64,000 nt of DNA from Candidatus Saccharimonadota bacterium. GTDB lineage: Bacteria; Patescibacteriota; Saccharimonadia; Saccharimonadales; Saccharimonadaceae. The notes below the pieces were generated by a model. That model worked only from the letters and a program-made list of their open reading frames with translations. It was not told the DNA's origin and did no database searches. Made by a program: the position numbers and the translations under genes. The DNA lies in the NCBI GenBank assembly GCA_030445245.1, contig JAUCSD010000001.1, positions 500,671 to 564,670 on the forward strand. The letters run 5' to 3'. Shown piece by piece: positions 27,627 through 63,750 of the stretch; the stretch's first letter is position 1; every line of letters starts with the position of its first letter.

Positions 27627-28274
27627 TTACTGTACTTTTTTCAGTACTTGCAGCGCCACACCGGCAATAAGTCCCGCGGATTGATCTTCGGGATGAATAA
27701 ATATAGGCTCATATTCTTCGGTTGATTCAGAAATAAGTGCGATTCGAGAGAGCTGACCTTCACTGTCAAGTTCGGGAAGAAATTTCTTAATATTAGCCAG
27801 ATTATTAACCGTTGCCACGACGTAGTCACCTTTTTTAGGTTCACGACCACTATCGACAATAACAAAGTCCCCGTCGTCGATTGTTTCTCCATACAGATGC
27901 GCCTGATTCATTGATGTGCCGTCCGCCTTAACAGCAAAAAGAGAATCGAGACTTCCGGCCCGTTTGAGCAAACGAGAAGAAACACAAATCTCGCCAGCAG
28001 GTTCAGCTCCGGCTATACGAGTAGCTGGCCCACAGTTTGCAGCACCAAGATAAGGTATCGTAACGAGGTCTGCCCCGACGAGCAAGCCCTCGTCAACTCG
28101 TGATGCACGGAAAATCCCCGTTCGCTTGATGAGTCCTTTTTTAATAAGCTGTTCCCGGTGGTACTTGGCTGTTTGCGGATGTACGCCTAGTTGACGGGCA
28201 AGTTCGCGAATACCTAATGTGTTTATATCGGTGGTCTTGGCAAGTTTGAGTAGTTGTATTTGCGTCTCGTTCAT
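27627..28274 (-). CDS. LexA-like repressor (wHTH + S24 peptidase), copy 1
   Basis: Start set at ATG 28274 (MNETQIQLL...) by homology of the leader (AAGGTAATG) with copy 2. HTH block IRELARQLGVHPQTAKYH. S24 catalytic Ser in DGTSM and Lys in ANIKKF. 186/215 residues are identical to 62414..63061 by hand alignment. Confidence 0.8.
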   Translation of the reverse strand: MNETQIQLLKLAKTTDINTLGIRELARQLGVHPQTAKYHREQLIKKGLIKRTGIFRASRVDEGLLVGADLVTIPYLGAANCGPATRIAGAEPAGEICVSSRLLKRAGSLDSLFAVKADGTSMNQAHLYGETIDDGDFVIVDSGREPKKGDYVVATVNNLANIKKFLPELDSEGQLSRIALISESTEEYEPIFIHPEDQSAGLIAGVALQVLKKVQ

Positions 28275-28313
28275 TACCTTATAGTATAGCCCGTCAAGAA
28301 GTGTCATGCAAGT

Positions 28314-28355
28314 GTCAATAAAACTGTTGACGGTCGATTATCAAACTGCTACTAT
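28314..28355 (+). promoter_or_regulatory. divergent promoter/operator: inverted GTCAA-N8-TTGAC overlapping a TTGACG-17-TACTAT promoter
   Basis: GTCAA 28314-18 and TTGAC 28327-31. -35 TTGACG 28327-32, -10 TACTAT 28350-55. The same architecture is conserved at 63100..63140. An extra GTGTCA(A) half-site repeat lies at 28293-28306. Confidence 0.5.
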
Positions 28356-28419
28356 TAAATTAGTTAAGAGAGGGAATCTACTCGAACCATAACATTCGTA
28401 ATAGGAGGGAGACGCAGGA

Positions 28420-28551
28420 ATGGGATTACTATCAATTATTCACAGCATTGGCATTGGACGCTTGTCGCACCGTCAAGCTTCTACGACGGATATTCCTGAG
28501 GAGGTCCAGAAGAGAATCCGCTCCTTCAGGCAAAAACACTTCACTGAATAA
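28420..28551 (+). CDS. conserved 43-aa microprotein (copy 1), below the ORF-track cutoff
   Basis: MGLLSIIHSIGIGRLSHRQASTTDIPEEVQKRIRSFRQKHFTE, with an AGGAGG RBS 11 nt upstream and a terminator downstream. 35/43 aa are identical to 63619..63750, with about 24 synonymous versus 8 non-synonymous codon differences. Confidence 0.65.
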   Translation: MGLLSIIHSIGIGRLSHRQASTTDIPEEVQKRIRSFRQKHFTE

Positions 28552-28561
28552 TATATTGAGT

Positions 28562-28610
28562 AAAAGAGCCGCTTGGTCGTACTGCGAGACAGACCAAGCG
28601 GCTCTTTTTT
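28562..28610 (+). terminator. rho-independent terminator
   Basis: AAAAGAGCCGCTTGGTC...GACCAAGCGGCTCTTTTTT, a 17-bp stem with a T tract. Confidence 0.8.
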
Positions 28611-30572: not shown

Positions 30573-33254
30573 ATGCAACGACTTATTGACACGCTTATTA
30601 ACGATCCGGCTCGCTACACACACGAGCATAATTTTGCCCCCGGCTGGGCACTTGCATTTGTTATCGGGGCATTGTTGTTCGAGATAGGATTGTTTCGTCT
30701 TCTTATCTACTTACTTATTAAAATCTTCCAATATAGAAAAGCATACTTATCGTTTATATTGAGACGCCTTAGAGCAGATACTAAGGAAGCTAAGTATACA
30801 TTCCTACAACTTACTTTTCCAACTGATGATACAAGATCAGCACACGCAACCGAACAATTGCATATCCTTCTAAGCAGCACGATTGGATATGATGGGTTAT
30901 GGGATCGGTTGACAGCTCCAAAACAACCATACTCACTTGAAATAGCGGCCACAAAGAACGAGGGTATTCGCTATATCATTCGAATACCAGACCAAAAAGT
31001 CGAAACAACGAGACGCACACTACTGGCATTTTTACCTGGACTTAAAATCAGAAAGATAAGCGACTACTTATCGATCATAAACAAAATTGAATGGGGTGTC
31101 GTCGAGTTGAAACTTTCGAGTGATTTCGTCTTGCCACTCGCCGATCGTAAAACGCTTAACGAGCATGACATAATCGCCTACCTTACTGGACATATGCGTA
31201 GTTTGACACAAGAGGAGTTAGTTGCACTCCAAATCGTAGCAGTACCCATACGAGATGATACTCATCCAAATGAACTAAGGCATATACGAGAGATACGACG
31301 CTACCTTAATTTTAATAAAGAAATAACACCAAGACTAACGACATACAAGATTAACATACCACGCCTCCTGCTTCAGGTTGCATTTGGACCACTTAGTCTT
31401 ATCATTTCTGGGGTGAAAATAATTATCTCAATCTTTGTTGGCTTTTCGACTAATATACTAAGAAACGATATTAAAGAGAAGTACACCCGAAATTCTTACG
31501 ATAAAAAACTTGGGCAAACTATAGAAACCAAACTCGATCAACACCTGTTTGAGGTGTGCGTTCGTCTGCTTGTAATATCCCCAAATGCTGAGAGTATTCG
31601 CATTCGGCTCAACGCTCTACAATCATCATTCAATGTGTTTACGACTATCGATCAGTCCATGATAAAACGTAAGAAAAATCTCTTTTCTTCATCTAACCGG
31701 TTGCTCGATCGATTTAATAATCGTGAGCTACTTCTGAACATCTCAACTCAACAGACCATTTTATCCACCGCTGAAATTTCAAATTTCTATCATTTTCCAG
31801 ATCCCAGATTAACAAAAACAGATGGCTTAGTTAAAAGTAGAAGCCGTGAATTAGCAGCACCATTGTCAATAAGGCAAAGTGATACAAAATTAGATGTCGT
31901 TGTAGGTATGAATGTATTTGATGACCAAATACAAGAGATTGGTATAACCCTTGAGCAACGACAGAAACATACGTACATCATTGGGAAAACTGGTACAGGG
32001 AAAACGACGCTACTTAAGAATTCCATCCACCAGGATATGCTCAACAATAAGGGCTTAGCCGTACTTGATCCTCACGGTGATATGTTTCATGAATTGTTAG
32101 ATTGCATACCAGAGAATCGCCGCAAGGACGTGGTCGTGTTCGATCCATCGGATCGCGATTATCCCATCGGCTTGAACATACTTGACCCAGGCATTGGGTT
32201 CGCAAGTAAAGATGAAAAAAATGAATGGATCACCAGTGCCGTATTGTCTATATTCACTAAATTAGCTGACGAAAAACAGTGGGGTCCTCGTATGGAGCAT
32301 ATACTGCGCAACGCTACACTGACCGCGCTTCAGATACCAAAACCGAGTCTATACACGCTGCAACAGCTGCTCACGGATAGAGTATACCAAAAAGAAATTG
32401 CCAAAACGCTAAAAGACCCCGTTCTCAAACAATTTTGGAATAAAGAATTCAAATTAATGGGCAGTATGCAGATGTCAGCTGCCACAGCCCCACTTACAAA
32501 CCGATTAGGTCACTTCATTACATCTAAAATGTCACGGCATATTCTTCTTCAAGAAGAGAGTACAATACGAATTGCCGATATAATAAACGGGGGCAAAATT
32601 CTACTCGTCAATCTATCTAAAGGTGATATCGGAGAAGACCAGAGTGAATTCTTCGGCACGATTTTAACCACACTTATTTGGATGGCCGCTTACCAGCGCA
32701 CCAAGATACCCGAAAAAAAGCGAAGAGACTTCTTTGTCTATGTCGATGAGTTTCAGAATTTTGCAACGCCACAATTTGGGGCTATTACAAGCGAGGGACG
32801 CAAATTCCATGTGTCACTTATCGTGTCTCACCAAAATATTGCACAAATAGAAGACAAGGATTTAATGAAGGTAATCGCCGGAAATGCCGCTACAATCATC
32901 TGCCTAAAGGCTAATCCGGAAGATGAATCATTCATCTTACCTTACATGAGGCCCGAAGTTAGGAAAGGTGACATCGTTAATCTAGCGCCCTATCATTTCT
33001 ACATGAAGACCTCAGGCAATGAAAGTGAAGATGCTTTCTCTGGACAGACAGTGCCCTTTACAACAAAAGAATCGAAAGACGCTGGACGAGAAGTCGTGTT
33101 ACTTAGTCAAAAAAAATACGGAACAACAAAGCATGACATAGAGACCTACATGGATGAGCTTTTTAGATCTGATGAATCAAATAAGTCCAAAGCTACTGTC
33201 TCTGTAGAGAAAAGAGCAAATAGAGGATCACCGAGAGAACTTCACACCGGCTAG
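30573..33254 (+). CDS. type IV secretion coupling-protein-like (VirD4/TraD/TraG-type) DNA-binding ATPase
   Basis: 893-aa ORF with N-terminal TM helices. Walker A IIGKTGTGKTTLLKN followed by AVLDPHGD, Walker B FFVYVDEFQNF, and HVSLIVSHQN. Confidence 0.7.
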   Translation: MQRLIDTLINDPARYTHEHNFAPGWALAFVIGALLFEIGLFRLLIYLLIKIFQYRKAYLSFILRRLRADTKEAKYTFLQLTFPTDDTRSAHATEQLHILLSSTIGYDGLWDRLTAPKQPYSLEIAATKNEGIRYIIRIPDQKVETTRRTLLAFLPGLKIRKISDYLSIINKIEWGVVELKLSSDFVLPLADRKTLNEHDIIAYLTGHMRSLTQEELVALQIVAVPIRDDTHPNELRHIREIRRYLNFNKEITPRLTTYKINIPRLLLQVAFGPLSLIISGVKIIISIFVGFSTNILRNDIKEKYTRNSYDKKLGQTIETKLDQHLFEVCVRLLVISPNAESIRIRLNALQSSFNVFTTIDQSMIKRKKNLFSSSNRLLDRFNNRELLLNISTQQTILSTAEISNFYHFPDPRLTKTDGLVKSRSRELAAPLSIRQSDTKLDVVVGMNVFDDQIQEIGITLEQRQKHTYIIGKTGTGKTTLLKNSIHQDMLNNKGLAVLDPHGDMFHELLDCIPENRRKDVVVFDPSDRDYPIGLNILDPGIGFASKDEKNEWITSAVLSIFTKLADEKQWGPRMEHILRNATLTALQIPKPSLYTLQQLLTDRVYQKEIAKTLKDPVLKQFWNKEFKLMGSMQMSAATAPLTNRLGHFITSKMSRHILLQEESTIRIADIINGGKILLVNLSKGDIGEDQSEFFGTILTTLIWMAAYQRTKIPEKKRRDFFVYVDEFQNFATPQFGAITSEGRKFHVSLIVSHQNIAQIEDKDLMKVIAGNAATIICLKANPEDESFILPYMRPEVRKGDIVNLAPYHFYMKTSGNESEDAFSGQTVPFTTKESKDAGREVVLLSQKKYGTTKHDIETYMDELFRSDESNKSKATVSVEKRANRGSPRELHTG

Positions 33255-33258
33255 CATC

Positions 33259-34062
33259 TTATATTTCTTCCCATATGCGTCCCGTCACACCATACCGTCT
33301 CAACTGATCAATAGTCGTAAAATGAATATATTTCATAGTATCGTCTTGCGGAGTGTCGTCAAGCAAAAAACGCATATATTGCTTCATGTATATGAGCCCT
33401 GCAGTTGTTTGACAAACAATATGTACAATGAACTCTGCACCATTAAACTCTCGCCGCCAATCCTCTTCATATATGTAGCTGGCATAATCTTTAAGACGTT
33501 TTCTTACAACATGCTTAGGTAAGGTACTATCAAATACTTGGATAAGGTAGTTAGTGATCACAAGCTCTTTCCTAGTCTGTGTCTGCTTCTCTACGACGAT
33601 ATCAGGGTTAAGATGCAAGAGCGTAGATGAACCACCTATTGACTTCAGATAGTCAGCCCGCGTCATGAATGTATATTTCAAACTATCCGAGCTGGCATTC
33701 CGCATTTCGAAATGGACCGCGCACTCCACGATCAGTAAGCATATTGCTATGAAGCTATCTCGGCGTGATGACTCCCTGTAACGTTTACGTATTTCATTAG
33801 CTGGGTATTCGTTTATAGATGTCATGAACCGAATGCCATTAATGGCAAGATAGTAGATCGCGGGTTTCGTCTTTTTCTCAAAATCTGTTGAGTAAATCCA
33901 TGCAATATACCCTCCTTCTCTCAAATCTTTTAGCCATGCCCCAACTCGTCTTCTATCCTTGTGGTGCATAAGAACCTCTATCTGTCTACTGTCTGCGAAC
34001 CTATAACGATAGAGGAGTTTAAGTATCTCTTGTTGTTTCTTTGTTATGGATGTTAATTTCAT
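33259..34062 (-). CDS. replication-relaxation family protein
   Basis: 267-aa ORF. N-terminal wHTH-like LT.KQQEILKLLYRYRFADSRQIEVL....R.....LKDLREGGYI is characteristic of the replication-relaxation family. Confidence 0.65.
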   Translation of the reverse strand: MKLTSITKKQQEILKLLYRYRFADSRQIEVLMHHKDRRRVGAWLKDLREGGYIAWIYSTDFEKKTKPAIYYLAINGIRFMTSINEYPANEIRKRYRESSRRDSFIAICLLIVECAVHFEMRNASSDSLKYTFMTRADYLKSIGGSSTLLHLNPDIVVEKQTQTRKELVITNYLIQVFDSTLPKHVVRKRLKDYASYIYEEDWRREFNGAEFIVHIVCQTTAGLIYMKQYMRFLLDDTPQDDTMKYIHFTTIDQLRRYGVTGRIWEEI

Positions 34063-36416: not shown

Positions 36417-36576
36417 TACAACACTCTACTACGTACATTGAGTATAAGAAGATAGTGGATATATGTTTATATATTAGATCATATATTGATATTATTAGAT
36501 AAATGTGTTATAAGTAATACTATAAGTTAAAGTTTGCCTCTCTGGCAAATATATTTAGGAAGAAGTGTTAATTAGT

Positions 36577-38883
36577 ATGGGCATTCTCAAACGTGCAAAC
36601 AAGCAAGGTCCGAAGCGTCAATGGGGCGCTGAACGGCGAATCAAGCCGCTTCCCATTGTTCACGACAAACCAACAACTCGAAAAATTATGCTTAGTCGCT
36701 TAGCCGTTGTGGCTACTGTCGCGATGTGGGCTGTATACTTCATCTACACCATTCTTCGTCAATTCTTTGATGGTCCGCAGACATTCCAATTTACAATGCA
36801 AGCAATCGGCTATTTATTAGTCGTAACTCTTCTCACGTTTTCAGCACTAATGTACTTACTAGCTCGTCAAGGCGCATTGCAACGATTTAGTCAGCACATA
36901 CGAGTACCTCGTGCGGAGCTAGACCGCCACTTCTCTCAAACACAAGAATCTGCTATTACAATGCTTATTCCAAGCTATGCTGAAGAGCCAGGTGTTATCC
37001 GCAAAACACTACTATCCGCTGCACTTCAGGAGTATCCGAGCAAACGCGTCATACTTTTAGTAGACGATAACCCCGTACAGAAGAACCAAAAAGATACTGA
37101 GCGACTTGAGATTACCCGTCGTATAAGTAACGACATTATGGAACTTTTATGTGAACCACGTGAGCGATTTAGCTCAGCACGTTCTCTCTTTGAACAAAAC
37201 TATATATTCATCAAACAGGTACAGCCTGAGGTCACAAAGCAACTTGCTAGTGAGTATATTTGGGCATCAGAATGGTTACATGAACTGGCTAATAAGGAAG
37301 TGATCGAAGATCACGTAGATATTTTCTTTGCCAATCATGTACTGCGCGACTTAGCGAACGAGTTGAAACTTACTGGTGATGCATTAGCCGCCTCAGCTCT
37401 TGAAGGTGCAACGATACCTCAAGAACGTATCTCTCAACTTTATCGTCGCCTTCAGTGGACCTTTGATGCAGAGCTCGGTGTCTTTGAGCGCAAGAAGTAC
37501 GCTTCACTCTCTAAAGAGGCTAACAAAGCGATGAACTTAAACAGTTACATCGGGCTGATGGGCGGTACTTACCGGTCCATGCCTACTCCTGACGGTCCTG
37601 TTCTAGCGCCAGTAAAACGAGCTCAAGAGGGTGATATTGTCATTCCTGATACAGAGTTTTTGCTTACTCTTGACGCCGATTCAATCTTGCTACGCGACTA
37701 CTGCTTGCGTTTAGTCTATTTCCTGCAGCAACCTGGTAATGAGCGCATCGCCGTCACGCAAACACCATATAGCTCATTCCGTGGTGCAGCAAGTCGTATT
37801 GAACGCCTCGCTGGTGCAACGACAGATATTCAGCACATTTTACACCAAGGCATGAGTCATTATGGTGCAACATTCTGGGTAGGTGCTAACGCAGTAATCC
37901 GTAAAAAGGCTATCGAAGATATTGTCGAAACTGAATGGGCTGGTGGATTTGAGATCAAGCGTTATGTCCAGGACCGTACAGTTATCGAGGATACCGAGTC
38001 GAGTGTTGACTTAGGACTCCACGGCTGGGGACTTGTGAACTATCCGGAACGTCTTAGTTATAGTGCAACTCCACCAGACTTTGGATCATTGATCGTACAG
38101 CGTCGACGCTGGGCAAACGGTGGTCTTTTGATCCTGCCGAAGCTTTGGGCAACCATTCGTGCTCGTAAGAGTAAAAATGAAGTCGTCAGCAAAGCTGAGA
38201 TCATGCTACGTATGAACTATATGGCCTCAATTGCTTGGGCAAGTTTCGGATTAATCTTCCTCCTTGCCTTTCCATACGATGGCCGTCTATTGAGTCCATT
38301 CGTAGTACTCGCCGCGTTACCTTATTTCCTTGCGATGGCGAGTGACTTAAAATACTGTGGTTATAAGCGTACCGATGTCTTCCGTATCTATGGCTTTAAC
38401 CTGATCTTGCTGCCAGTACAGCTAGCCGGCGTACTCAAGTCGATTCAACAAGCGTTGAGCGGCAAGAAGATTCCGTTTGCACGTACGCCAAAAGTAAAGA
38501 ACCGTACCGTTTCGCCAATGCTCTATGTTGTAGCACCTCTCGCTGTCGTTGCCTTCTCGATCGTTACATTCTATCGTGACTTTACCGCCCAAAACTGGGG
38601 CAACGCTTCATTTGCTGCGTTTAATGCCATCGTGGCTATGTGGGCAATCCTTGCCTATATCGGTATCGGCAATACGCTAAAAGACATCTGGGTCGGGTTA
38701 ACCGACTGGATGTATGTTGATATAAAGTCAAAGCAAACAAAGACAGCTGTTCAAACCGATGAACCTGCTATTGATTGGCGTGCTGTTCTCTATCACGGCC
38801 ACGCTCAGGAATCCGTACCACTAGCAGCACAAGCTAGTGAGCAAGTCGTAACGACAGGCAAAAAAGAAGGGATACTCGTATGA
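36577..38883 (+). CDS. processive family-2 glycosyltransferase (cellulose/chitin/hyaluronan-synthase-like)
   Basis: Start set at ATG 36577 (the track uses GTG 36565). Motifs LLVDDNP, TLDADS, VIEDTESS and QRRRWANGG (QxxRW). Two N-terminal and about five C-terminal TM helices. Confidence 0.8.
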   Translation: MGILKRANKQGPKRQWGAERRIKPLPIVHDKPTTRKIMLSRLAVVATVAMWAVYFIYTILRQFFDGPQTFQFTMQAIGYLLVVTLLTFSALMYLLARQGALQRFSQHIRVPRAELDRHFSQTQESAITMLIPSYAEEPGVIRKTLLSAALQEYPSKRVILLVDDNPVQKNQKDTERLEITRRISNDIMELLCEPRERFSSARSLFEQNYIFIKQVQPEVTKQLASEYIWASEWLHELANKEVIEDHVDIFFANHVLRDLANELKLTGDALAASALEGATIPQERISQLYRRLQWTFDAELGVFERKKYASLSKEANKAMNLNSYIGLMGGTYRSMPTPDGPVLAPVKRAQEGDIVIPDTEFLLTLDADSILLRDYCLRLVYFLQQPGNERIAVTQTPYSSFRGAASRIERLAGATTDIQHILHQGMSHYGATFWVGANAVIRKKAIEDIVETEWAGGFEIKRYVQDRTVIEDTESSVDLGLHGWGLVNYPERLSYSATPPDFGSLIVQRRRWANGGLLILPKLWATIRARKSKNEVVSKAEIMLRMNYMASIAWASFGLIFLLAFPYDGRLLSPFVVLAALPYFLAMASDLKYCGYKRTDVFRIYGFNLILLPVQLAGVLKSIQQALSGKKIPFARTPKVKNRTVSPMLYVVAPLAVVAFSIVTFYRDFTAQNWGNASFAAFNAIVAMWAILAYIGIGNTLKDIWVGLTDWMYVDIKSKQTKTAVQTDEPAIDWRAVLYHGHAQESVPLAAQASEQVVTTGKKEGILV

Positions 38884-40424
38884 TTCAGGAAAAAACTCGT
38901 CGTCTATCGCCGTGGCGCGTCATGCTTGCAGTCTTCATCGTAGTCACAGCATGTGTCGGTAGCTTCTACGGCTTCCAGTGGTGGAAATCGGAGCAATCAC
39001 AGGCTTCACACAAACCATGGTTCGCCAGTTACGTAGACGTTACCTCAACACCGACATTCGCCTTCGAACAACTGAGCAAGGGTGATCACAAAGATGTCAT
39101 GCTCTCGTTTATCGTTAGCTCTACCTCAAAGGACTGTGTTCCTTCATGGGGCGGCAGCTTTACACTCGATCGCGCCGGCGACTCACTCGATCTTGATCGT
39201 CGTATCGCCCGCCTGAAACAGCAAGGTGGTAAGATAGCTATTAGTTTCGGTGGTCTCAAGAATAAAGAGTTAGCAAACTCGTGTAATGATGTTACGTCAC
39301 TAAAATCCGCCTACAAGGCTGTTATTGACCGCTACGACCTTGACACTATCGATCTCGATATTGAACAGGGTAATCTGACCGATACCGCTGCAAGCGAACG
39401 TCGTGCAGTCGCTCTCGCTGAATTACAGGCTGAACGACGTACGGCTGGTAAGAGTTTGGCTGTCTGGCTCACGCTACCTGTCTCACCTACTGGGTTAACC
39501 GAAGCTGGAACCAATATTGTCTCGCAAATGCTTGCGAAGAAAGTTGACATCGCTGGCGTGAATGTGATGACGATGGACTACGGACAAAGCCTTAACGGTC
39601 TTAGTATGATCGAAGCGGCTAAAAAAGCATTGACTGCGACACATCATCAGCTTGGCGTCGTGTACCAACGTGTTGGCATATATCTTAACGATGCTACCTT
39701 GTGGTCGAAGATTGGTGCCACGCCAATGATTGGTCAAAATGACTTTGATAATGAAGTTTTCATGCTAGACGATGCTGTTCAATTGAACAAGTTCGCTCGT
39801 GAAAAAGGCATGGCTCGTATGTCCATGTGGTCTGCAAACCGTGATATTACCTGCGGTAGTAACTACACGACTACCAAAGTTGTATCTGACTCATGTAGCG
39901 GCGTTAAAGAAGATGCTGGTGCATTTGCAAATGCCCTTGGCTCAGGCTTCAACGGTAGTTTTGCGCTCAGTGCTGGCGTCGTAACAAATGCCGACACTAA
40001 TTCAAAGCAAGTCAAGGATGATCCGGCAACGAGTCCGTATCCAATCTGGAGTGAGGATAGTACATATCTTCAAGGCACAAAGGTTGTCTGGCTTCACAAT
40101 GTATACGAATCTAAATGGTGGACTCAAGGTAATCAACCTGATAACCCTGTGCTTCAAGAATGGGAAACTCCCTGGAAGCTTGTCGGTCCAGTCCTACCTG
40201 GTGAAAAACCAGTTCAGCAAGCGACACTTCCTGAGGGTACCTACCCCGAATGGTCAGGCTCAACTGAATATGACACAGGACAACGAATACTCTTTCAGGG
40301 CGCACCATACCAAGCTAAATGGTGGAATAAGGGACAAAGTCCAGCCGCCGCATCTTCAAACCCAGACAGTTCTCCTTGGGTGCCACTTACCCAAGCACAG
40401 ATCAACGAGATCAAAGGCGAATAA
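38880..40424 (+). CDS. membrane-anchored GH18 chitinase-like protein with two C-terminal CBM5/12 domains
   Basis: ATG overlaps the GT2 stop (ATGA). N-terminal TM. GH18 DxxDxDxE motif (DTIDLDIE). Two chitin-binding repeats (YPIWSEDSTYLQGTKVVWLHNVYESKWWTQGNQP and YPEWSGSTEYDTGQRILFQGAPYQAKWWNKGQSP). Confidence 0.85.
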   Translation: MIQEKTRRLSPWRVMLAVFIVVTACVGSFYGFQWWKSEQSQASHKPWFASYVDVTSTPTFAFEQLSKGDHKDVMLSFIVSSTSKDCVPSWGGSFTLDRAGDSLDLDRRIARLKQQGGKIAISFGGLKNKELANSCNDVTSLKSAYKAVIDRYDLDTIDLDIEQGNLTDTAASERRAVALAELQAERRTAGKSLAVWLTLPVSPTGLTEAGTNIVSQMLAKKVDIAGVNVMTMDYGQSLNGLSMIEAAKKALTATHHQLGVVYQRVGIYLNDATLWSKIGATPMIGQNDFDNEVFMLDDAVQLNKFAREKGMARMSMWSANRDITCGSNYTTTKVVSDSCSGVKEDAGAFANALGSGFNGSFALSAGVVTNADTNSKQVKDDPATSPYPIWSEDSTYLQGTKVVWLHNVYESKWWTQGNQPDNPVLQEWETPWKLVGPVLPGEKPVQQATLPEGTYPEWSGSTEYDTGQRILFQGAPYQAKWWNKGQSPAAASSNPDSSPWVPLTQAQINEIKGE

Positions 40425-53928: not shown

Positions 53929-53994
53929 TGGGCTAGATAGGATTCGAACCTATGTCTCCACTTTCGCGGCGCTCTCCCTATGAGCTACTAGTCC
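53929..53994 (-). ncRNA. tRNA-like element lacking an anticodon loop (degenerate tRNA gene or tRNA-mimic RNA)
   Basis: Minus strand reads GGACTAG-TA-GCTC-ATAGGGA-GAGC-G-CCGC-GAAA-GTGG-AGAC-ATAGG-TTCGAAT-CCTAT-CTAGCCC-A. Acceptor, D and T arms are canonical, but only 17 nt (not about 23) lie between the D and T arms. Confidence 0.45.
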
Positions 53995-58286: not shown

Positions 58287-58451
58287 TTACTTTGCAGATC
58301 GTACAAGATTCTTTTGGTCAGCGTTTGCTTCTTGTGCTGCTTGTCGGAGTAGTTTAACGACTGTTTGGCGGTTCTCATCAGAAACGACACGAGAGTACAC
58401 TCGTGGAACGTTTTTGTTTGGTCGTAGGCTTAAAAATAACTTTTTTATCAT
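58287..58451 (-). CDS. 54-aa basic protein (below ORF-track cutoff), translationally coupled to the zeta-like gene
   Basis: MIKKLFLSLRPNKNVPRVYSRVVSDENRQTVVKLLRQAAQEANADQKNLVRSAK. Its ATG overlaps the zeta-like stop (ATGA at 58448-58451). Confidence 0.45.
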   Translation of the reverse strand: MIKKLFLSLRPNKNVPRVYSRVVSDENRQTVVKLLRQAAQEANADQKNLVRSAK

Positions 58452-59149
58452 AGGATAATCTCCCCTAGTTGCTCTCTATTATATACTTTTGGCAGGTATT
58501 GGTCAATATCATTAACGTCGTCATAGATAGTCTCCGTTCCATTTACGTAATCCTTAATAATTAGAAAAAGAGTAAGTTTGTCGCCGAATAACTCTTTAGC
58601 TTTCAGCACATTTTCTCTTGCAGCAAAGTACGAATTAATAAAGATTTCCTTCGGAACATATCTTCCTTCTGTTTTTTGTCGAATCTTTGTGAACTCCCAC
58701 GCTTGCACGGGATCTTGATAGACAAAGAAGATCTGTAAGCTATAGTCACGCCGATCCGCACGCTTAAGATTTTCTACGGCTTTGCCTATTGCAAACGTAC
58801 CGTCCAACATAAAAGAATATTTCTTATCAAATATTTTCTCAAGTATCTTATCAACTGCAAGCGCTGCAGCTGGCTGAATAATGTGTGAATTAGCGCCACT
58901 GTAACCCGGTATTTTTTGGCGAAAATCATCAGCGTCGATTCGAATTGGCGTAGCAGTGAACTTCTCCAAAAAGCGCTTGGAAACTTCCGTCTTTCCGGCG
59001 CCAGGCGTACCGGCCATAAAGGATGCGGCTGGAGGGTATTCATCCGTTTCGGGCTGGTAGTTACTTTCAACAATAACTTCGTCGAAAAGTCGAGTCTTAT
59101 TATCTCGTACCCATTGCAAAGCTTGCTTGCGAAGAGAATCATCATCCAT
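58448..59149 (-). CDS. zeta-toxin-family P-loop kinase
   Basis: Walker A GTPGAGKTE, IRIDADDFRQ and MLDGTF blocks as in zeta/PezT. Confidence 0.7.
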   Translation of the reverse strand: MDDDSLRKQALQWVRDNKTRLFDEVIVESNYQPETDEYPPAASFMAGTPGAGKTEVSKRFLEKFTATPIRIDADDFRQKIPGYSGANSHIIQPAAALAVDKILEKIFDKKYSFMLDGTFAIGKAVENLKRADRRDYSLQIFFVYQDPVQAWEFTKIRQKTEGRYVPKEIFINSYFAARENVLKAKELFGDKLTLFLIIKDYVNGTETIYDDVNDIDQYLPKVYNREQLGEIIL

Positions 59150-59208
59150 ATATACTCAGTATACTATGCCAGGGTTACTCCTATTTAAAAATAAATTACT
59201 GTTATTAT

Positions 59209-59424
59209 TCAAGGCTTTTCTGGTGAAGGCACAATAAGTACAGCTACGCCATTGGAATATGCAAACCAGAGAACTTTGTAAAGTAATTCGGGCTCTCCAG
59301 CAAAAGCATCTAACATCATCATGAGGTAATCGGCTTTGTTGCGCTTTACTTCTTCTATCGCTTTCACGACATCTGGGAGCCTATCAAGTATCTCTTTTTC
59401 AGTATCTTCGTCAATTAATCTCAT
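59209..59424 (-). CDS. 71-aa acidic protein upstream of the zeta-like gene (candidate antitoxin)
   Basis: ORF 59 nt upstream on the same strand. No family recognised. Confidence 0.4.
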   Translation of the reverse strand: MRLIDEDTEKEILDRLPDVVKAIEEVKRNKADYLMMMLDAFAGEPELLYKVLWFAYSNGVAVLIVPSPEKP

Positions 59425-59484
59425 ATGAATAAGTATAGCAAATTCAGCCTAGTGGATTCGAACCCCATTTATAGAGGCAGCAAA

Positions 59485-59527
59485 ATACAAAAGTGTTCCA
59501 GGAATAAATTCTGGAACACTTTTGTAT
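59485..59527. other. 17-bp perfect hairpin in a divergent intergenic region
   Basis: ATACAAAAGTGTTCCAG-9 nt-CTGGAACACTTTTGTAT. Confidence 0.6.
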
Positions 59528-59674
59528 CTGTAATAATCTCATGGCTGGGTATGAGTCTCTCAACTGGCACCCCTTTCTGTCAGATTTCATCCTCGTTGGA
59601 CAGAGGTTAGAACAACTTGGGTTTACTTATTACAGGAGCAAAGTAACTGTCATCAGCCCTTTGGAGGTGCAGTA

Positions 59675-60151
59675 ATGTTTGGCTTCGGAAACTCACGAGT
59701 TGATAGCGAGTTGTCACTTTCGAGCCTTCTCGATCAAAACAGCTTTTACAATGCCTTTACGAATGATCTAGCAAAAGCGAGGCATGAAGTTATCATTGAG
59801 TCCCCCTTCATCTCATACAAACGCTTAAACTATTTATTGCCAATACTCCATCAGCTCATTCAGCGTAAAGTGCGGATCATTATTAATACTAAACCTCCTG
59901 AGGAACAAGACTTTGACTATAGATTACAGATAGAAGAATGTATTTCAGTTCTACTAGAGATGGGAGTTGAGATGCTTATTACCGGCGGGCATCACCGAAA
60001 ACTGGCTATTATTGATCAACAGATGCTCTACGAAGGATCGCTCAACATCCTCTCGCAAAACGATAGTTGCGAGATTATGCGTCGCATACACTCTGAAAAG
60101 CTTGCGATGGAGATGATTGACTTCATTGGTATCAGGAGATTTGCAAAATGA
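59675..60151 (+). CDS. single-HKD phospholipase D-family nuclease-like protein (Nuc-like)
   Basis: HRKLAIIDQQMLYEGSLN matches HxKx4Dx6GSxN. At 158 aa it is the size of dimeric Nuc-type enzymes. GGAGG RBS upstream. Confidence 0.75.
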   Translation: MFGFGNSRVDSELSLSSLLDQNSFYNAFTNDLAKARHEVIIESPFISYKRLNYLLPILHQLIQRKVRIIINTKPPEEQDFDYRLQIEECISVLLEMGVEMLITGGHHRKLAIIDQQMLYEGSLNILSQNDSCEIMRRIHSEKLAMEMIDFIGIRRFAK

Positions 60152-60217
60152 TAGTATTACGTAAAATTGTACTCTAACTATGTGGATTACCTACGGATTA
60201 GCGGCTAAGCTCGTACT

Positions 60218-60460
60218 ATGGATGACACGGTAAAGTTTTTAAGAAGATTTGGCAGCGAGATTCATATCATGCGCAAGGATCGAGGTCTAACCCAGAAAGA
60301 GTTTGCCAAGGTTACAGGAATCTCCCCTAGCTACATTGCTTCCATCGAGTCAGGAAGGCGGTGGCCTCATATCAATATTCTGTACGCCATCGCAAATAAT
60401 CTAGAGACTACACCTCATGAACTAATAAAAATAGCATTGAAGGAGCCAACTTATGAGTAA
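60218..60460 (+). CDS. XRE-family HTH transcriptional regulator
   Basis: RKDRGLTQKEFAKVTGISPSYIASIESGRR. Confidence 0.75.
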   Translation: MDDTVKFLRRFGSEIHIMRKDRGLTQKEFAKVTGISPSYIASIESGRRWPHINILYAIANNLETTPHELIKIALKEPTYE

Positions 60461-62081: not shown

Positions 62082-62411
62082 TTAATTGATTGATCCGTGA
62101 GCCCTCTCCCATTCATTGATCGCCTTCGAACGATGCTCGTTATCGGAATACCAATCTATGAATATCTTATCTAGTTTTGAACTTGTGGAGCTAAGTGGTT
62201 TGCCCGTAGTCAAGTCGTACTTGGCTATCTGCTTATCATGAAGAGATATATGAATATGAGGCGGTCGATGATCACTGGTATTGATAACGAGCTTGTACCG
62301 GCTAGTGGCACCAACCATGCCCTTTTGTATAGGCAAGCTCAAAATGAAAGCTGGTAAACTACCACGATTAATCATCTTCTCAAAATCGTCTAAGGCGATG
62401 AGTTTACTCAT
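62082..62411 (-). CDS. DUF4160-domain protein
   Basis: SDHRPPHIHISLHDKQIAKYDLTTGKPL matches the DUF4160 core (dH.PPHfH). Lies 2 nt downstream of LexA-like copy 2. Confidence 0.65.
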   Translation of the reverse strand: MSKLIALDDFEKMINRGSLPAFILSLPIQKGMVGATSRYKLVINTSDHRPPHIHISLHDKQIAKYDLTTGKPLSSTSSKLDKIFIDWYSDNEHRSKAINEWERAHGSIN

Positions 62412-62413
62412 AA

Positions 62414-63061
62414 CTATTGAACCCTTTTAAGAACCTGAAGTGCCACCCCGGCAATGAGGCCTTCTGACTCGTCTTCAGGATGAATAAAGATAGGCTCATA
62501 CTCTTCAGTCGACTCAGACACAAGAGCAATACGAGAAAGATTTCCTTCACTGTCCTGTTCGGGAAGGAATTTCTTAATATTCGCCAAGTTGTTGACGGTG
62601 GCTACAACGTAGTCGCCTTTTTTCGGTTCACGGCCGCTGTCAACAATCACGAAGTCTCCGTCGTCTATATTTTCACCGTAGAGGTGGGCTTGGTTCATTG
62701 ACGTGCCATCGGCTTTGACGGCAAACAAGGAATCAAGACTCCCCGCCCTCTTAAGTAGTCGAGAGGAAACGCTAATCTCCCCTGCTGGCTCGGCTCCGGC
62801 CATGCGAGTTGCAGGTCCGCAGTTGGCAGCGCCGAGGTACGGAATAGTGACAAGATTAGCCTCACCAAGAAGGCTTTCGTCGACTCTTGACGCTCGGAAT
62901 GTCCCGGTTTTTTTGAGTAACCCCCTACTGATCAGCCATTCCTTGTGATATTTAGCTGTCTGCGGATGAACACCTAATTGACGGGCTAGTTGCCGAATGC
63001 CCAATGCACTCACGTCTGTCGTTTTTGCAAGCTCTAATATCTGCTTTCGTGTCTCACTCAT
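62414..63061 (-). CDS. LexA-like repressor (wHTH + S24 peptidase), copy 2
   Basis: 215-aa ORF with the same HTH and the same DGTSM / ANIKKF catalytic contexts as copy 1. Confidence 0.8.
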   Translation of the reverse strand: MSETRKQILELAKTTDVSALGIRQLARQLGVHPQTAKYHKEWLISRGLLKKTGTFRASRVDESLLGEANLVTIPYLGAANCGPATRMAGAEPAGEISVSSRLLKRAGSLDSLFAVKADGTSMNQAHLYGENIDDGDFVIVDSGREPKKGDYVVATVNNLANIKKFLPEQDSEGNLSRIALVSESTEEYEPIFIHPEDESEGLIAGVALQVLKRVQ

Positions 63062-63099
63062 TACCTTTAGTATAAGGTGTCAAGAAGATTTATGCAAGT

Positions 63100-63140
63100 G
63101 TCAACAAATCGTTGACGGATGATTTTAAGGCTGTTATATT
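63100..63140 (+). promoter_or_regulatory. divergent promoter/operator: inverted GTCAAC-N5-GTTGAC overlapping a TTGACG-17-TATATT promoter
   Basis: GTCAACAAATCGTTGAC at 63100-63116. -35 TTGACG 63112-17, -10 TATATT 63135-40. A GTGTCAA half-site also lies at 63078-84. Confidence 0.5.
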
Positions 63141-63218: not shown

Positions 63219-63359
63219 ATGGTTGCATCAAAAAAACCGGCACCAAAGTATCGCAACGCAGAAGACGGCAAGTATGTACCTCCGTCGTACGCAAAAACCC
63301 ATCCAAAAACAACCGTAAAAGAGACGGGGCCACATCCTAAGAAAGTGAAGAAGTCATGA
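63219..63359 (+). CDS. 46-aa Lys-rich microprotein (below ORF-track cutoff)
   Basis: MVASKKPAPKYRNAEDGKYVPPSYAKTHPKTTVKETGPHPKKVKKS, with a GAGAGGGAG RBS. Its stop overlaps the next start (ATGA). The pattern (..G.YV....AK.HP.TTVKE) recalls a widespread small-protein family (from memory). Confidence 0.5.
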   Translation: MVASKKPAPKYRNAEDGKYVPPSYAKTHPKTTVKETGPHPKKVKKS

Positions 63360-63619
63360 ATGAGTATCGTGTTGACTACTATATCAAACCACTAAACGCT
63401 ACCCGGATCACTAAACTAGGTGGTGCCTGGGGCGAAAAAACTGAGCAAACGATTATGGACGAGATCTCCAGTATGAAGAGTCACTACTATGTAGAAAGTG
63501 ACGCTAGCGTCGCTTGGCTCGAGATTGAACGCAGTGCGCTCGGACACCCCTACCTGAAAACCGTCCCAGACAATACACGTCTTGATAATCTTTCAAGTTT
63601 GCCACGGAGGTATTCGTGA
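63356..63619 (+). CDS. DUF3892-like protein
   Basis: 87-aa ORF. ITKLGG.W....E..I.EI......YYVE......VAWLEIER.....PYLKTVPDNTRLDNLSSLP fits the DUF3892 pattern. Confidence 0.6.
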   Translation: MNEYRVDYYIKPLNATRITKLGGAWGEKTEQTIMDEISSMKSHYYVESDASVAWLEIERSALGHPYLKTVPDNTRLDNLSSLPRRYS

Positions 63620-63750
63620 TGAATCTGCTATCGATTATTAATAGTATTCGCATCAAGCGTTTATCACATCACCAGGCTTCGACCACCGACATCCCTGAAG
63701 AAACACAAGAGAAGATCCGGTCGTTTCGACAGAAGCACTTCACTGAGTAG
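63619..63750 (+). CDS. conserved 43-aa microprotein (copy 2), below the ORF-track cutoff
   Basis: MNLLSIINSIRIKRLSHHQASTTDIPEETQEKIRSFRQKHFTE. Its ATG overlaps the DUF3892 stop (GTGATG). Confidence 0.65.
   Translation: MNLLSIINSIRIKRLSHHQASTTDIPEETQEKIRSFRQKHFTE

Follow-up and report, generated by a model that had tools for sequence, protein, structure and literature searches.

Introduction

Small cell-division inhibitors of the SOS response are encoded opposite lexA in several monoderm bacteria, namely YneA in Bacillus subtilis, SosA in Staphylococcus aureus, ChiZ (Rv2719c) in Mycobacterium tuberculosis and DivS in Corynebacterium glutamicum. Such inhibitors have a single transmembrane helix and an extracytoplasmic domain, which is LysM in YneA and ChiZ. 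In phage lambda, cI, transcribed from PRM, faces cro, transcribed from PR, and the SXT/R391 elements have their SetR region. Among the proteins associated with the SOS machinery, DinD of E. coli belongs to the SOS response and inhibits RecA filaments, DinI works via an acidic, DNA-mimicking helix, and gp7 of GIL01 is about 50 residues long. The phage protein gp7 is reported to bind LexA and to prevent its cleavage (PMC4551915). DUF3892 operons have been reported under the control of the DNA-damage-responsive CapH/CapP regulators (bioRxiv 10.1101/2022.04.27.489752).

Saccharibacteria and other bacteria of the candidate phyla radiation have tiny genomes, and very little is known about their gene regulation and stress response. 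Here, we describe a locus present twice in a 64,000-nucleotide stretch of a Candidatus Saccharimonadota genome (the window), which constitutes a compact and directly testable circuit: a putative self-cleaving repressor, a defined candidate operator and a 43-residue product missed by annotation. The locus resembles those of yneA, sosA, chiZ and divS in that a small gene diverges from a repressor of the self-cleaving S24 type and the operator lies between the two genes; by analogy, the peptide here is presumed to be induced by DNA damage. An earlier, sequence-only reading of this DNA had considered the peptide to be unlike the known inhibitors, and we likewise found neither a transmembrane helix, a LysM or other domain, nor sequence similarity to them. 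The peptide here would remain on the cytoplasmic side, and its repressor is not a canonical LexA. As the host belongs to the Saccharibacteria, within the candidate phyla radiation, the analogy with yneA and sosA is limited to gene layout. SidA, DidA, TisB and DinQ differ as well, being hydrophobic and membrane-spanning, whereas the peptide is hydrophilic and basic and has no transmembrane segment.

Results

Two diverged copies of a 43-codon gene

The sequence-only reading had reported an unannotated open reading frame (ORF) of 43 codons at two positions in the window (Table 1), and both translations were exactly the peptides that it gave. Their absence from annotation was borne out indirectly, since the peptides are missing from a collection that contains the neighboring proteins JWP06_643, JWP06_644 and JWP06_645; the Logan gene calls omit the ORF too. 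The gene is an example of the conserved small genes that are absent from public annotation.

A codon-by-codon comparison of the two copies bore out the earlier count by hand (35 of 43 residues identical): 11 codons are identical, synonymous differences affect 24 sense codons plus the stop, and the remaining 8 codons change the residue. At the nucleotide level, 88 of 132 positions (67%) are identical, and the 44 differences are distributed over codon positions 1, 2 and 3 as 8, 5 and 31 (binomial P of at least 31 at one position, 5.4e-7). Neutral simulations at the same divergence (n = 20,000) retained on average 17.4 and at most 26 of the 43 residues, compared to the 35 observed. Equal conservation in all frames, which would have indicated an RNA or DNA element, was not found, as the alternative frames of the two copies have just 10 of 43 residues in common or contain stop codons. 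The ORF encodes a real protein under purifying selection. A recent duplication as the origin of the two copies was ruled out by the saturation of synonymous sites, in the peptide and repressor genes alike.

Table 1 Features of the two modules, with positions in the window.
Feature	Position	Strand	Details
LexA-like S24 repressor, copy 1	27627..28274	-	215 aa from ATG at 28274
Predicted promoter of repressor copy 1	28283..28311	-	TTGCAT-N17-TATACT, read from sequence
Candidate operator palindrome, copy 1	28314..28331	.	GTCAATAAAACTGTTGAC; right arm forms the -35 element on the peptide side
Predicted promoter of peptide copy 1	28327..28355	+	TTGACG-N17-TACTAT, upstream TG; conserved across loci
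Small-protein gene, copy 1	28420..28551	+	43 aa; sole gene of its own transcription unit
Intrinsic terminator after copy 1	28562..28610	+	About 19 base pairs, then T-run; dG -30.6 kcal/mol, z -7.36
DUF4160 gene, directly downstream of repressor copy 2	62082..62411	-	Pfam 1.6e-5
LexA-like S24 repressor, copy 2 (JWP06_643)	62414..63061	-	215 aa
Candidate operator palindrome, copy 2	63100..63116	.	GTCAACAAATCGTTGAC; exact motif match
Predicted promoter of the copy-2 operon	63112..63140	+	TTGACG-N17-TATATT, upstream TG
46-aa basic protein (JWP06_644)	63219..63359	+	First gene of the copy-2 operon; NCBI-annotated
DUF3892 protein (JWP06_645)	63356..63619	+	87 aa; PF13031 31.2 bits, cut-off 22.3
Small-protein gene, copy 2	63619..63750	+	43 aa
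Start of the gene for a protein of about 1053 aa	63811..64000	+	No known family; extends past the window end

A family of small stand-alone proteins

Among roughly 15 billion public proteins we found about a dozen distinct homologues of 40-61 residues, every one of them a stand-alone protein and all from soil or rhizosphere metagenomes; as these 12 or so sequences are phylogenetically related, counts taken over them are not independent. When 1.84 billion representative proteins were searched exhaustively with HMMER, only small, stand-alone relatives came back, and a word-indexed protein search gave the same picture. Four longer matches of the profile search (P0008, P0010, P0012 and P0013) were repeat translations and hence not relatives.

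The purifying selection proposed from the two copies proved to be strong throughout the family. Values of dN/dS lay between 0.02 and 0.31 wherever dS could be calculated, and close members combined a pS of 0.42-1.09 (saturated) with a pN of 0.06-0.16. The reading frame, whose disruption by indels or stops would have spoken against a peptide, is preserved in all homologues found, and changes in length are in-frame and restricted to the middle linker. The C-terminal IRSFRQKHF showed no variation in the first seven sequences aligned and is nearly kept in the most divergent members, as IHAFRRKHF in P0007 and IRSFQQKHF in P0009.

Searches of Pfam, PHROGs, PADLOC and NCBIfam gave no matches to the peptide, and the family profile, run against the sequences of the PDB, produced chance-level matches only (E of at least 0.22). 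No relative was found in 2.9 million IMG/VR viral contigs, nor was there a match in the GenBank phages (INPHARED) or the PLSDB plasmids. A new family, matching none known in the profile databases searched, is the best reading of these results.

The peptide is basic and has no transmembrane helix

As the sequence-only reading had noted, the N-terminus is short and hydrophobic but does not form a transmembrane helix: the maximum Kyte-Doolittle average over 19 residues is at most 0.46 in all members. The peptides are hydrophilic and basic (net charge +2 to +9 across members) and share a three-part layout, in which a short amphipathic N-terminus with basic flanks is joined by a linker that varies in length to a near-invariant C-terminal helix. 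An AlphaFold2 model places helices at residues 4-17 and 27-41; its confidence is moderate for the whole peptide (mean pLDDT 66.8) and reaches a pLDDT of about 85 over a block spanning most of the C-terminal helix.

The N-terminus has a pattern of two hydrophobic residues, one other, two hydrophobic, two others and one hydrophobic, followed by an Arg/Lys cluster, similar to the N-terminus of MinE and the C-termini of MinD and FtsA. This is a resemblance of pattern and not homology. Hydrophobic moment and mean hydrophobicity are comparable too, in a weak comparison with yardstick membrane-targeting sequences, and the moment in the two window copies is modest (0.28-0.32).

Several other classes of small protein were considered and rejected. 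A ribbon-helix-helix DNA binder was ruled out by the variable, indel-bearing middle segment, and a clamp-binding or SSB-tail-like motif by peptide sequences that fall outside those consensus motifs. A secreted peptide, a lipoprotein or the precursor of a modified peptide was rejected given the lack of a signal sequence, of Cys and of conserved modification genes nearby.

A non-canonical S24 repressor

Both copies had been described as lying opposite a LexA-like repressor. The divergent position held, and both genes are of the S24/winged-helix type, but the repressor is not a canonical LexA: against the TIGR00498 model, it scores 43.6 bits, with a cut-off of 110.95. The two repressors are 87% identical to each other, with a pS of 0.87 between their genes. 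The open frame of copy 1 extends to 28307, and its start was set by homology with relatives of 215 residues. Peptidase_S24 matches both copies, with 45.3 and 45.5 bits against a Pfam cut-off of 23.3 (E 7.9e-12 for copy 1). At the N-terminus the best matches are weak winged-helix ones (MarR, HTH_24); LexA_DNA_bind (PF01726) reaches 16.3 bits in copy 1, below its cut-off of 23.7, and has no match in copy 2. Identity to a canonical Saccharibacteria LexA (locus L006) is only 31%.

Residues Cys81-Gly82, Ser121 and Lys163 of the repressor align with the cleavage site (AG) and the catalytic residues of Thermotoga maritima LexA (3K2Z), and the Cys-Gly, Ser and Lys are invariant in 16 members of the repressor family. 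The cleavage site of UmuD is also Cys-Gly. On sequence criteria, the repressor is a member of the S24 self-cleaving superfamily that includes LexA, CI and UmuD, and non-canonical as a LexA.

A scan of a genome collection with the repressor returned two distant proteins only, the canonical Saccharibacteria LexA and a protein from Erysipelotrichaceae. No relative of the repressor family was found in the 2.9 million IMG/VR viral contigs, and comparison with phage genomes gave a single weak match of 28% identity. More distant members of this lineage-specific family face quite different genes, among them an HNH gene, a TnpB gene and an operon of prophage-like character.

A conserved candidate operator and predicted divergent promoters

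The intergenic region of each module contains a palindrome with the consensus GTCAA-N7/8-TTGAC, which overlaps the -35 of the peptide promoter and which we regard as the candidate operator. Exact matches in the 64 kb window number two, one per module, with 0.21 expected by chance. Operators of a canonical LexA sit upstream of DNA-repair genes such as recA, uvrA and those for error-prone polymerases; as no further sites beyond chance occur in the window, a genome-wide SOS role of the repressor is unproven. Almost all related loci have the palindrome once and at the homologous position, even distant loci without the peptide, and it is kept together with repressors only 54-71% identical to those of the window.

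The predicted promoters on the peptide side score 9-11 of 12. On the other side, the predicted -10 of repressor copy 1 is located 8 nt from the ATG (7-8 nt across loci), so close that a leaderless or nearly leaderless mRNA is implied. This layout of the repressor promoter is retained in 12 independent loci.

Organization of the two transcription units

The ribosome-binding site claimed for copy 1 was found, as AGGAGG at 28403-28408, 11 nt before the ATG. This spacing is rather long for a ribosome-binding site. The strong terminator reported after copy 1 was also recovered, as a hairpin with a T-run (Table 1); a simple terminator scan had missed it because its loop is long.

Copy 2 is translationally coupled, as had been proposed: its start overlaps the stop codon of the DUF3892 gene (TGATG), with GGAGG 8 nt upstream. 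The 46-residue protein JWP06_644, which begins the operon, is conserved in L002 and matched no family in Pfam, PHROGs or NCBIfam. No terminator-like site separates peptide copy 2 from the gene for the protein of about 1053 residues, after which a type IV secretion gene cluster follows. The arrangement of the DUF4160 gene next to the repressor is also present in L002.

Gene order at related loci

The link to a LexA-like gene extends beyond the window. Synteny held at every locus where it could be checked, with an S24 repressor gene divergent from the peptide at L001-L005, L008-L010 and L019/L020. The peptide is either encoded alone (copy 1, L001 and L004) or, as in copy 2, coupled to a DUF3892 gene, with a TGATG or TAATG junction in four of five lineages and the pairing persisting even in the most divergent member. 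At L004, promoter and 5' UTR match those of copy 2, but the genes for the 46-residue and DUF3892 proteins are deleted and the peptide directly follows the first ribosome-binding site. The peptide is thus the part that was retained.

What follows the peptide varies. In L019-L021 a DinD orthologue (NF008573, 294.9 bits, cut-off 242, E 6e-88) lies 64 nt after it, and no promoter or terminator was predicted between the two. In L002, genes for a ParB-methyltransferase and a terminase-small-subunit-like protein come after it, and at L012 a repressor homologue (71% identity) faces an operon that reaches ParB-methyltransferase and terminase genes. Loci L001, L003, L009, L014 and L017 are located among ordinary chromosomal genes. 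With a downstream gene that is different at each locus, or absent, a leader-peptide role tied to one downstream gene is ruled out.

Discussion

A damage-induced effector as the favored reading

The locus is best read as a two-part switch, present in a single clade of Saccharibacteria from soil, whose output is always the peptide. As to its function, we tentatively favor a small cytoplasmic protein of about 43 residues, produced under the control of the repressor, that would be a damage-induced effector or regulator acting by binding. A dimeric, non-canonical repressor of the LexA type, combining a winged helix with an S24 self-cleaving domain, would bind GTCAA-N7/8-TTGAC; the bound palindrome would cover the -35 of the divergent promoter and keep the peptide gene off. 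Upon DNA damage, activated RecA would prompt self-cleavage of the repressor at Cys-Gly, and derepression would allow the peptide to be made, either on its own or together with the DUF3892 protein. Judging from the repressor and the operator layout, induction of the peptide by DNA damage is probable. The DinD orthologue behind the peptide in L019-L021 and the DUF3892 operons reported under CapH/CapP also connect the module with DNA damage.

Once made, the peptide would act by binding. Its amphipathic N-terminal helix, flanked by basic residues, would serve as a tether, most likely to the membrane, and the linker of variable length would join this tether to the C-terminal helix (I-x-x-F-x-x-K-H-F). 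This helix would dock on a highly conserved cellular target and bring about a temporary damage response, for example an arrest of growth or division. Being nearly invariant, it could be used as a probe for finding that target.

Against the effector reading we counted that the repressor fails the canonical LexA model, that the window has no operator sites beyond chance elsewhere, and that distant repressor relatives face mobile-element genes while copy 2 heads a region with content like that of mobile elements. If the effector reading is true, the peptide would represent a checkpoint protein of a new type: it would be soluble or attached peripherally to the membrane, whereas the inhibitors known from other monoderm bacteria span it. 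As the family is rare and restricted to a single lineage, its reach would be limited unless the target or the mechanism is general.

A bolder version, which we regard as doubtful, would make the peptide the founder of a damage-induced family and the minimal output, in some genomes the sole one, of a non-canonical SOS-like circuit in the candidate phyla radiation, a cytoplasmic protein held at the membrane by its amphipathic helix, whose invariant C-terminal helix stops a core process. That process may be division, replication or RecA activity. The peptide of copy 2 may also couple the type IV secretion machinery, which Saccharibacteria need for life on host cells, to DNA damage at the level of expression.

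Alternative readings

A live alternative, unlikely in our estimate, is that the locus is the switch of a mobile element: the immunity region of prophage-like or conjugative elements of Saccharibacteria, with a cleavable repressor of the CI/SetR type facing the early genes. The peptide would then bind this repressor, as an antirepressor or commitment factor, and lock the induced state. The layout is indeed like that of phage immunity regions. As in lambda and SetR, shared operators separate a cleavable S24-type repressor from the operon that derepression would switch on. Operator half-sites are common to the two divergent promoters, and the -10 of the repressor, 7-8 nt from its ATG, suggests a leaderless mRNA as for lambda cI. 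Some relatives of the repressor face phage-like genes, among them the ParB-methyltransferase and terminase genes of the L012 operon, and genes of the same two kinds follow the peptide in L002. The surroundings in the window point the same way: copy 1 is 2 kb away from genes encoding a coupling protein and a Replic_Relax protein, copy 2 heads the gene for the protein of about 1053 residues and the type IV secretion cluster and has zeta toxin, PLD nuclease and HTH genes upstream, and the genome carries two diverged copies (repressor pS 0.87).

However, the first products of the operon, unlike those of lambda and SetR, have no helix-turn-helix domain: searches of Pfam, PHROGs and NCBIfam found neither an HTH nor any other domain in the peptide and the 46-residue protein, and no HTH in the DUF3892 protein. 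Searches of viral and plasmid collections found no member of the family, except for the one repressor match at 28% identity. An operator conserved family-wide, across repressors 54-71% identical, would be unexpected for immunity specificities, which diversify rapidly. Where the peptide is alone and a terminator closes the module, there are no element genes to turn on and nothing further to control, and five of the loci are situated amid ordinary chromosomal genes. Finally, the type IV secretion systems of this phylum have been reported as chromosomal and, for the most part, non-conjugative (bioRxiv 10.1101/2025.01.22.634366).

We consider it equally unlikely that the peptide is a feedback modulator, induced by SOS, which would bind RecA filaments or the repressor and tune cleavage in the manner of DinI, RecX, DinD or GIL01 gp7. 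Like gp7, DinI and DinD, it would be a small SOS-associated protein that acts by binding, and in one lineage it shares an apparent operon with a DinD orthologue. A repressor and a single peptide would make a minimal autoregulatory loop, and the C-terminal helix, being nearly invariant, suggests a partner that is itself very conserved, for which RecA would qualify. On the other hand, Pfam, NCBIfam and PHROGs searches found no sequence similarity of the peptide to DinI, RecX, PsiB or gp7, and in charge and architecture gp7, DinI and DinD are unlike it; in particular, the peptide is basic, unlike DinI. A modulator of this kind would also leave the conserved hydrophobic N-terminus and the linker of variable length unexplained.

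Still less probable, in our view, is that the peptide depends on its neighbor, as a co-effector, adaptor or antidote of the DUF3892 protein in a damage-triggered defense or dormancy module, where DUF3892 perhaps acts on RNA or ribosomes. The translational coupling in four of five lineages, kept in the most divergent member, is what this reading would lead one to expect. The DUF3892 fold has been described as resembling a dsRNA-binding domain and ribosome hibernation factors (bioRxiv 10.1101/2025.01.14.632903). In the CapH/CapP preprint, DUF3892 is linked to defense-type operons under damage-sensing regulators, and a damage-sensing repressor inactivated by proteolysis, as we infer for this locus, would stand divergent from a DUF3892-encoding operon in both cases. 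The sensor there is an HTH protein with a metallopeptidase, whereas here it would be a single S24 chain, and the small peptide is not known from those systems. The solitary peptides of three lineages, including L004 with its deleted DUF3892 gene, speak against a strict partnership, PADLOC models match neither protein, and the AlphaFold2 model of the DUF3892 protein was unusable (pLDDT 38.6).

That the ORF does not encode a functional protein, and arose by chance, serves as a leader peptide of which only the translation counts, or reflects a conserved element of RNA or DNA, is consistent with its short length and with its omission by the NCBI and Logan gene finders, but this reading is close to refuted by amino acids conserved despite saturated synonymous sites, by the lack of conservation in the remaining frames, by the absence of an Rfam match in the region and by the varying downstream genes.

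At the L006 locus, the canonical Saccharibacteria LexA is followed by a protein of 75 residues that looks DUF2188-like. As the CapH/CapP preprint also links DUF2188 operons to these regulators, this would be a further similarity.

Two short ORFs encode a constrained small protein

The sequence-only reading had described two related 43-codon ORFs under purifying selection. Both lie where it had placed them and translate into the peptides it gave. Codon by codon, the copies show 11 identities, 24 synonymous sense codons plus a synonymous stop, and 8 replacements, giving 67% identity in nucleotides versus 81% in amino acids. Their 44 nucleotide differences are distributed 8/5/31 across codon positions 1/2/3 (binomial P = 5.4e-7 for the skew). 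Neutral simulations at equal divergence yielded 17.4 ± 2.2 identical residues (maximum 26), as against 35 observed. Close homologues have a pN of 0.06-0.16 compared with a mostly saturated pS of 0.42-1.09, and dN/dS in the family is 0.02-0.31 where calculable. The skew, the excess of identical residues and the low pN relative to pS all bear out purifying selection. Equal conservation in all frames, named beforehand as the contrary case, was not seen: the remaining five frames are poorly conserved or contain stop codons. An Rfam search at the ORFs returned no match. The conservation pattern is a coding signature rather than that of an RNA or DNA element, and the ORF is a real small-protein gene under constraint; that it is non-functional is scarcely credible.

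The expression signals proposed earlier are also in place. Copy 1 carries AGGAGG 11 nt 5' of its ATG and, 3' of the ORF, a terminator hairpin with a T-run (-30.6 kcal/mol, z = -7.4). The start of copy 2 overlaps the stop of the preceding gene (TGATG), consistent with translational coupling, and GGAGG lies 8 nt 5' of it. The genes are indeed unannotated: neither copy is in the searched protein collection, which includes JWP06_643 (repressor copy 2), 644 (a 46-aa protein) and 645 (a DUF3892 protein), and the Logan gene calls of the same contig skip the peptide, though the 46-aa neighbour was called. Repressor copy 1, as either a 215-aa or a 226-aa version, is missing from the collection that holds copy 2; it may be annotated from another start codon or lack annotation altogether.

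A peptide family outside described families

Five relatives came from a profile search across 5.8 billion clusters. HMMER, run exhaustively on 1.84 billion representatives, gave six true clusters (P0005, P0006, P0007, P0009, P0011 and P0014) and four further matches that were rejected as spurious translations of repeats. A metagenome scan added three loci. The sample comprises about 12 distinct, mutually related sequences, all from metagenomes of soil or rhizosphere; the proteins are 40-61 aa long and stand-alone, with no fusion to a larger protein among them.

The alignment shows a conserved N-terminus, M-(G/N)-hydrophobic-hydrophobic-x-hydrophobic-hydrophobic-x-x-hydrophobic, followed by an Arg/Lys cluster. 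The middle is rich in Ser/Thr/Arg and variable in length; indels are confined to it and are all in-frame, and the reading frame is kept across homologues. The C-terminus reads EKIRSFRQKHFxE; its IRSFRQKHF stretch does not vary in the first seven aligned sequences and is slightly altered in the most divergent ones (IHAFRRKHF in P0007, IRSFQQKHF in P0009). AlphaFold2 predicts helices at residues 4-17 and 27-41 with a mean pLDDT of 66.8, rising to about 85 over a block spanning most of the C-terminal helix. The net charge is +2 to +9, and the peptide has no Cys, signal peptide or transmembrane segment. Comparison with Pfam, PHROGs, PADLOC, NCBIfam and PDB gave no relative, and by sequence the peptide appears to fall outside every family described there.

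Obligatory linkage to a cleavable repressor

At every locus with enough flank (L001-L005, L008-L010 and L019/L020 among the loci L001-L021 compared with the window), the peptide unit is divergent from a 215-aa Peptidase_S24 gene. The expected synteny with a LexA-like gene therefore holds, and linkage to a cleavable S24 repressor is obligatory. The description of this repressor as LexA-like stands in part. Aligned to Thermotoga LexA (3K2Z), it has Cys81-Gly82 at the cleavage site, Ser121 and Lys163, all invariant across 16 family members. It is, however, not a canonical LexA: it scores 43.6 bits on the equivalog model, below the 110.95 required, also fails the model for the LexA DNA-binding domain, and shares 31% identity with a canonical Saccharibacteria LexA.

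The two repressor copies are 87% identical in protein with a pS of 0.87, which rules out a recent duplication: either they are old paralogues or they were acquired separately. Copy 1 clusters with L001; L002 and L003 join copy 2. The family comprises about 60 clusters at at least 54% identity, the named ones all from Saccharibacteria or other Patescibacteria. The peptide occurs only beside the closest clade (roughly at least 75% identity), and repressors at 54-71% identity face other genes. One of these, in L012 (71% identity, same operator), faces genes for a 103-aa protein, a 193-aa protein, a ParB-methyltransferase, a 138-aa protein and a terminase large subunit, an operon that resembles a Patescibacteria prophage and lies on a 717 kb contig.

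In copy 1, L001 and L004 the peptide gene is by itself; in copy 2, L002, L003, L008 and L019 its translation is coupled to that of an 86/87-aa DUF3892 gene. A DUF3892-like gene whose assignment is not on record precedes it in L010 and in L009, whose sequence is identical to that of L005; in L009 the two genes do not overlap but are 31 nt apart. An extra small ORF heads some of the DUF3892 units: the lysine-rich JWP06_644, which contains KYRNAEDGKYVPPSYAKTHPKTTVKE and matched nothing in family searches, is also the first operon gene in L002, and a different small ORF occupies its slot in L003 and L008. L004 has a copy-2-type promoter and 5' UTR with the 46-aa and DUF3892 genes deleted, placing the peptide immediately 3' of the first ribosome-binding site, which indicates that the peptide is the element retained by selection. 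The 3' neighbour varies by locus.

Coordinates and neighbours of the features discussed
Feature	Location	Remarks
Peptide copy 1	window 28420-28551 (+)	3': terminator
Peptide copy 2	window 63619-63750 (+)	3': 1053-aa gene without assigned family, then full type IV secretion cluster just past window end
Peptide	L001, L003	3': convergent genes
Peptide	L002	3': ParB-methyltransferase gene and terminase-small-like gene
Peptide	L009	3': FBP_C protein
Repressor copy 1	window 27627-28274 (-); 27627-28307 in the search for both versions	
Repressor copy 2	window 62414-63061 (-)	JWP06_643
46-aa gene	window 63219-63359	JWP06_644
Repressor -10/ATG	window 28272-28288, 63059-63074	same position in L001-L004, L008-L010, L012, L014, L019
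Palindrome	window 28314-28331, 63100-63116	candidate operator
DinD orthologue	L019 5202-5786; L020 1112-1963; L021 370-1221	
Repressor homologue	L012 1-2841	faces prophage-like operon
Repressor homologue	L014	faces HNH gene
Repressor homologue	L016 1471-2892	faces TnpB gene, to which the coordinates refer
Repressor homologue	L017	faces unknown 130-aa gene
75-aa gene	L006 843-1070	
Coupling protein and Replic_Relax genes	window 30573-34062	
Secretion cluster	L018 14343-20264	
tRNA match	window 53929-53994 (-)	
Island-like region	window 58448-60460	
GT2 and GH18 genes	window 36565-40424	

A conserved candidate operator overlaps the peptide promoter

The intergenic order, with promoter elements as predicted, is constant in 12 independent loci. 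From the repressor ATG it runs through 7-8 nt, TATACT (-10), a 17-nt spacer with a GTCAAG half-site, TTGCAT (-35), the palindrome (T)GTCAA-N7/8-TTGAC(G/A), and 17 nt to an extended -10 (TG-n-TAnnAT) on the peptide side. The predicted repressor -10 (TATACT or TATAAT) is 7-8 nt from the ATG at every tabulated locus, implying a leaderless mRNA like that of lambda cI. The predicted peptide promoter has the palindrome's right arm as its -35 and is thereby overlapped by a conserved candidate operator. The window holds exactly two exact matches, one per module (0.21 expected), and relaxed searches there gave no extra sites above chance. Of the 21 loci, 16 carry a single copy at the equivalent position, among them the peptide-free, distant L012 and L014; the five loci lacking an exact match include the unrelated L006 and L007, plus L016 and L017.

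Possible functions of the peptide

We infer that the repressor at the candidate operator would keep the peptide gene repressed and that RecA-stimulated self-cleavage would lift this repression, making the gene DNA-damage-inducible. A link to DNA damage is supported in one lineage (L019-L021), where a DinD orthologue (283-aa Bro-N protein; NF008573, 294.9 bits vs cut-off 242, E 6e-88) directly follows the peptide, apparently within one operon; neither a promoter nor a terminator is predicted in the interval. It is also supported by DUF3892 operons, which a preprint reports under the damage-sensing CapH/CapP regulators (bioRxiv 10.1101/2022.04.27.489752). A 75-aa protein in L006, which looks DUF2188-like by sequence, follows a canonical Saccharibacteria LexA with overlapping stop and start codons, an echo of DUF2188/DUF3892 operons under damage-sensing regulators.

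Our leading, still tentative, reading of this computational evidence is that the peptide is a damage-checkpoint or effector protein. The gene layout matches that of the lexA-divergent division inhibitors YneA, SosA, ChiZ and DivS. Their defining features are a transmembrane helix and LysM; the peptide has neither, and is, as had been noted, unlike these inhibitors. It would belong to a known kind, the small repressor-controlled damage-inducible proteins, as a new family. Speculatively, its basic-flanked terminal amphipathic segment, variable spacer and near-invariant amphipathic basic helix form a tethered binding peptide; the near-invariance of the C-terminal helix suggests a very conserved target.

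A role as a mobile-element switch or antirepressor is unlikely. The layout is similar to that of the lambda cI/cro and SetR regions, but a Cro-like HTH protein is lacking here. An operator kept across so divergent a repressor family is easier to reconcile with a lineage-wide regulator than with heteroimmune phage repressors, and so is the family's absence from IMG/VR, INPHARED and PLSDB. Feedback on RecA or on the repressor is improbable to a like degree, and a partnership with DUF3892 in a defence or dormancy module is less probable again.

Other genes near the two copies

Two kb downstream of copy 1 lie genes for an 893-aa type IV coupling protein and Replic_Relax. After copy 2, on the same strand, is a complete MPF-FATA-like type IV secretion cluster encoding a pilin, a TrbL/VirB6-like protein, PrgI, a TraC-like protein, VirB4, an M23 peptidase and a second coupling protein. 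Since no terminator is predicted between copy 2 and the next gene, these secretion genes might be damage-inducible.

An Rfam tRNA match (47.6 bits) that borders the island-like region leading to copy 2 could be an unusual tRNA; ARAGORN called no tRNA in the whole window. One stretch of island-like content contains a zeta toxin gene with adjoining small ORFs, HTH_3 regulators and a PLD-family nuclease similar to the defence proteins MkoC, MkoB and DrmC. In L016, the gene divergent from the repressor homologue (58% identity) is TnpB/Cas12f-like. Elsewhere in the window, a large GT2 glycosyltransferase with a weak chitin-synthase match adjoins a GH18 chitinase with CBM5/12 modules, a notable pair for a reduced-genome epibiont.
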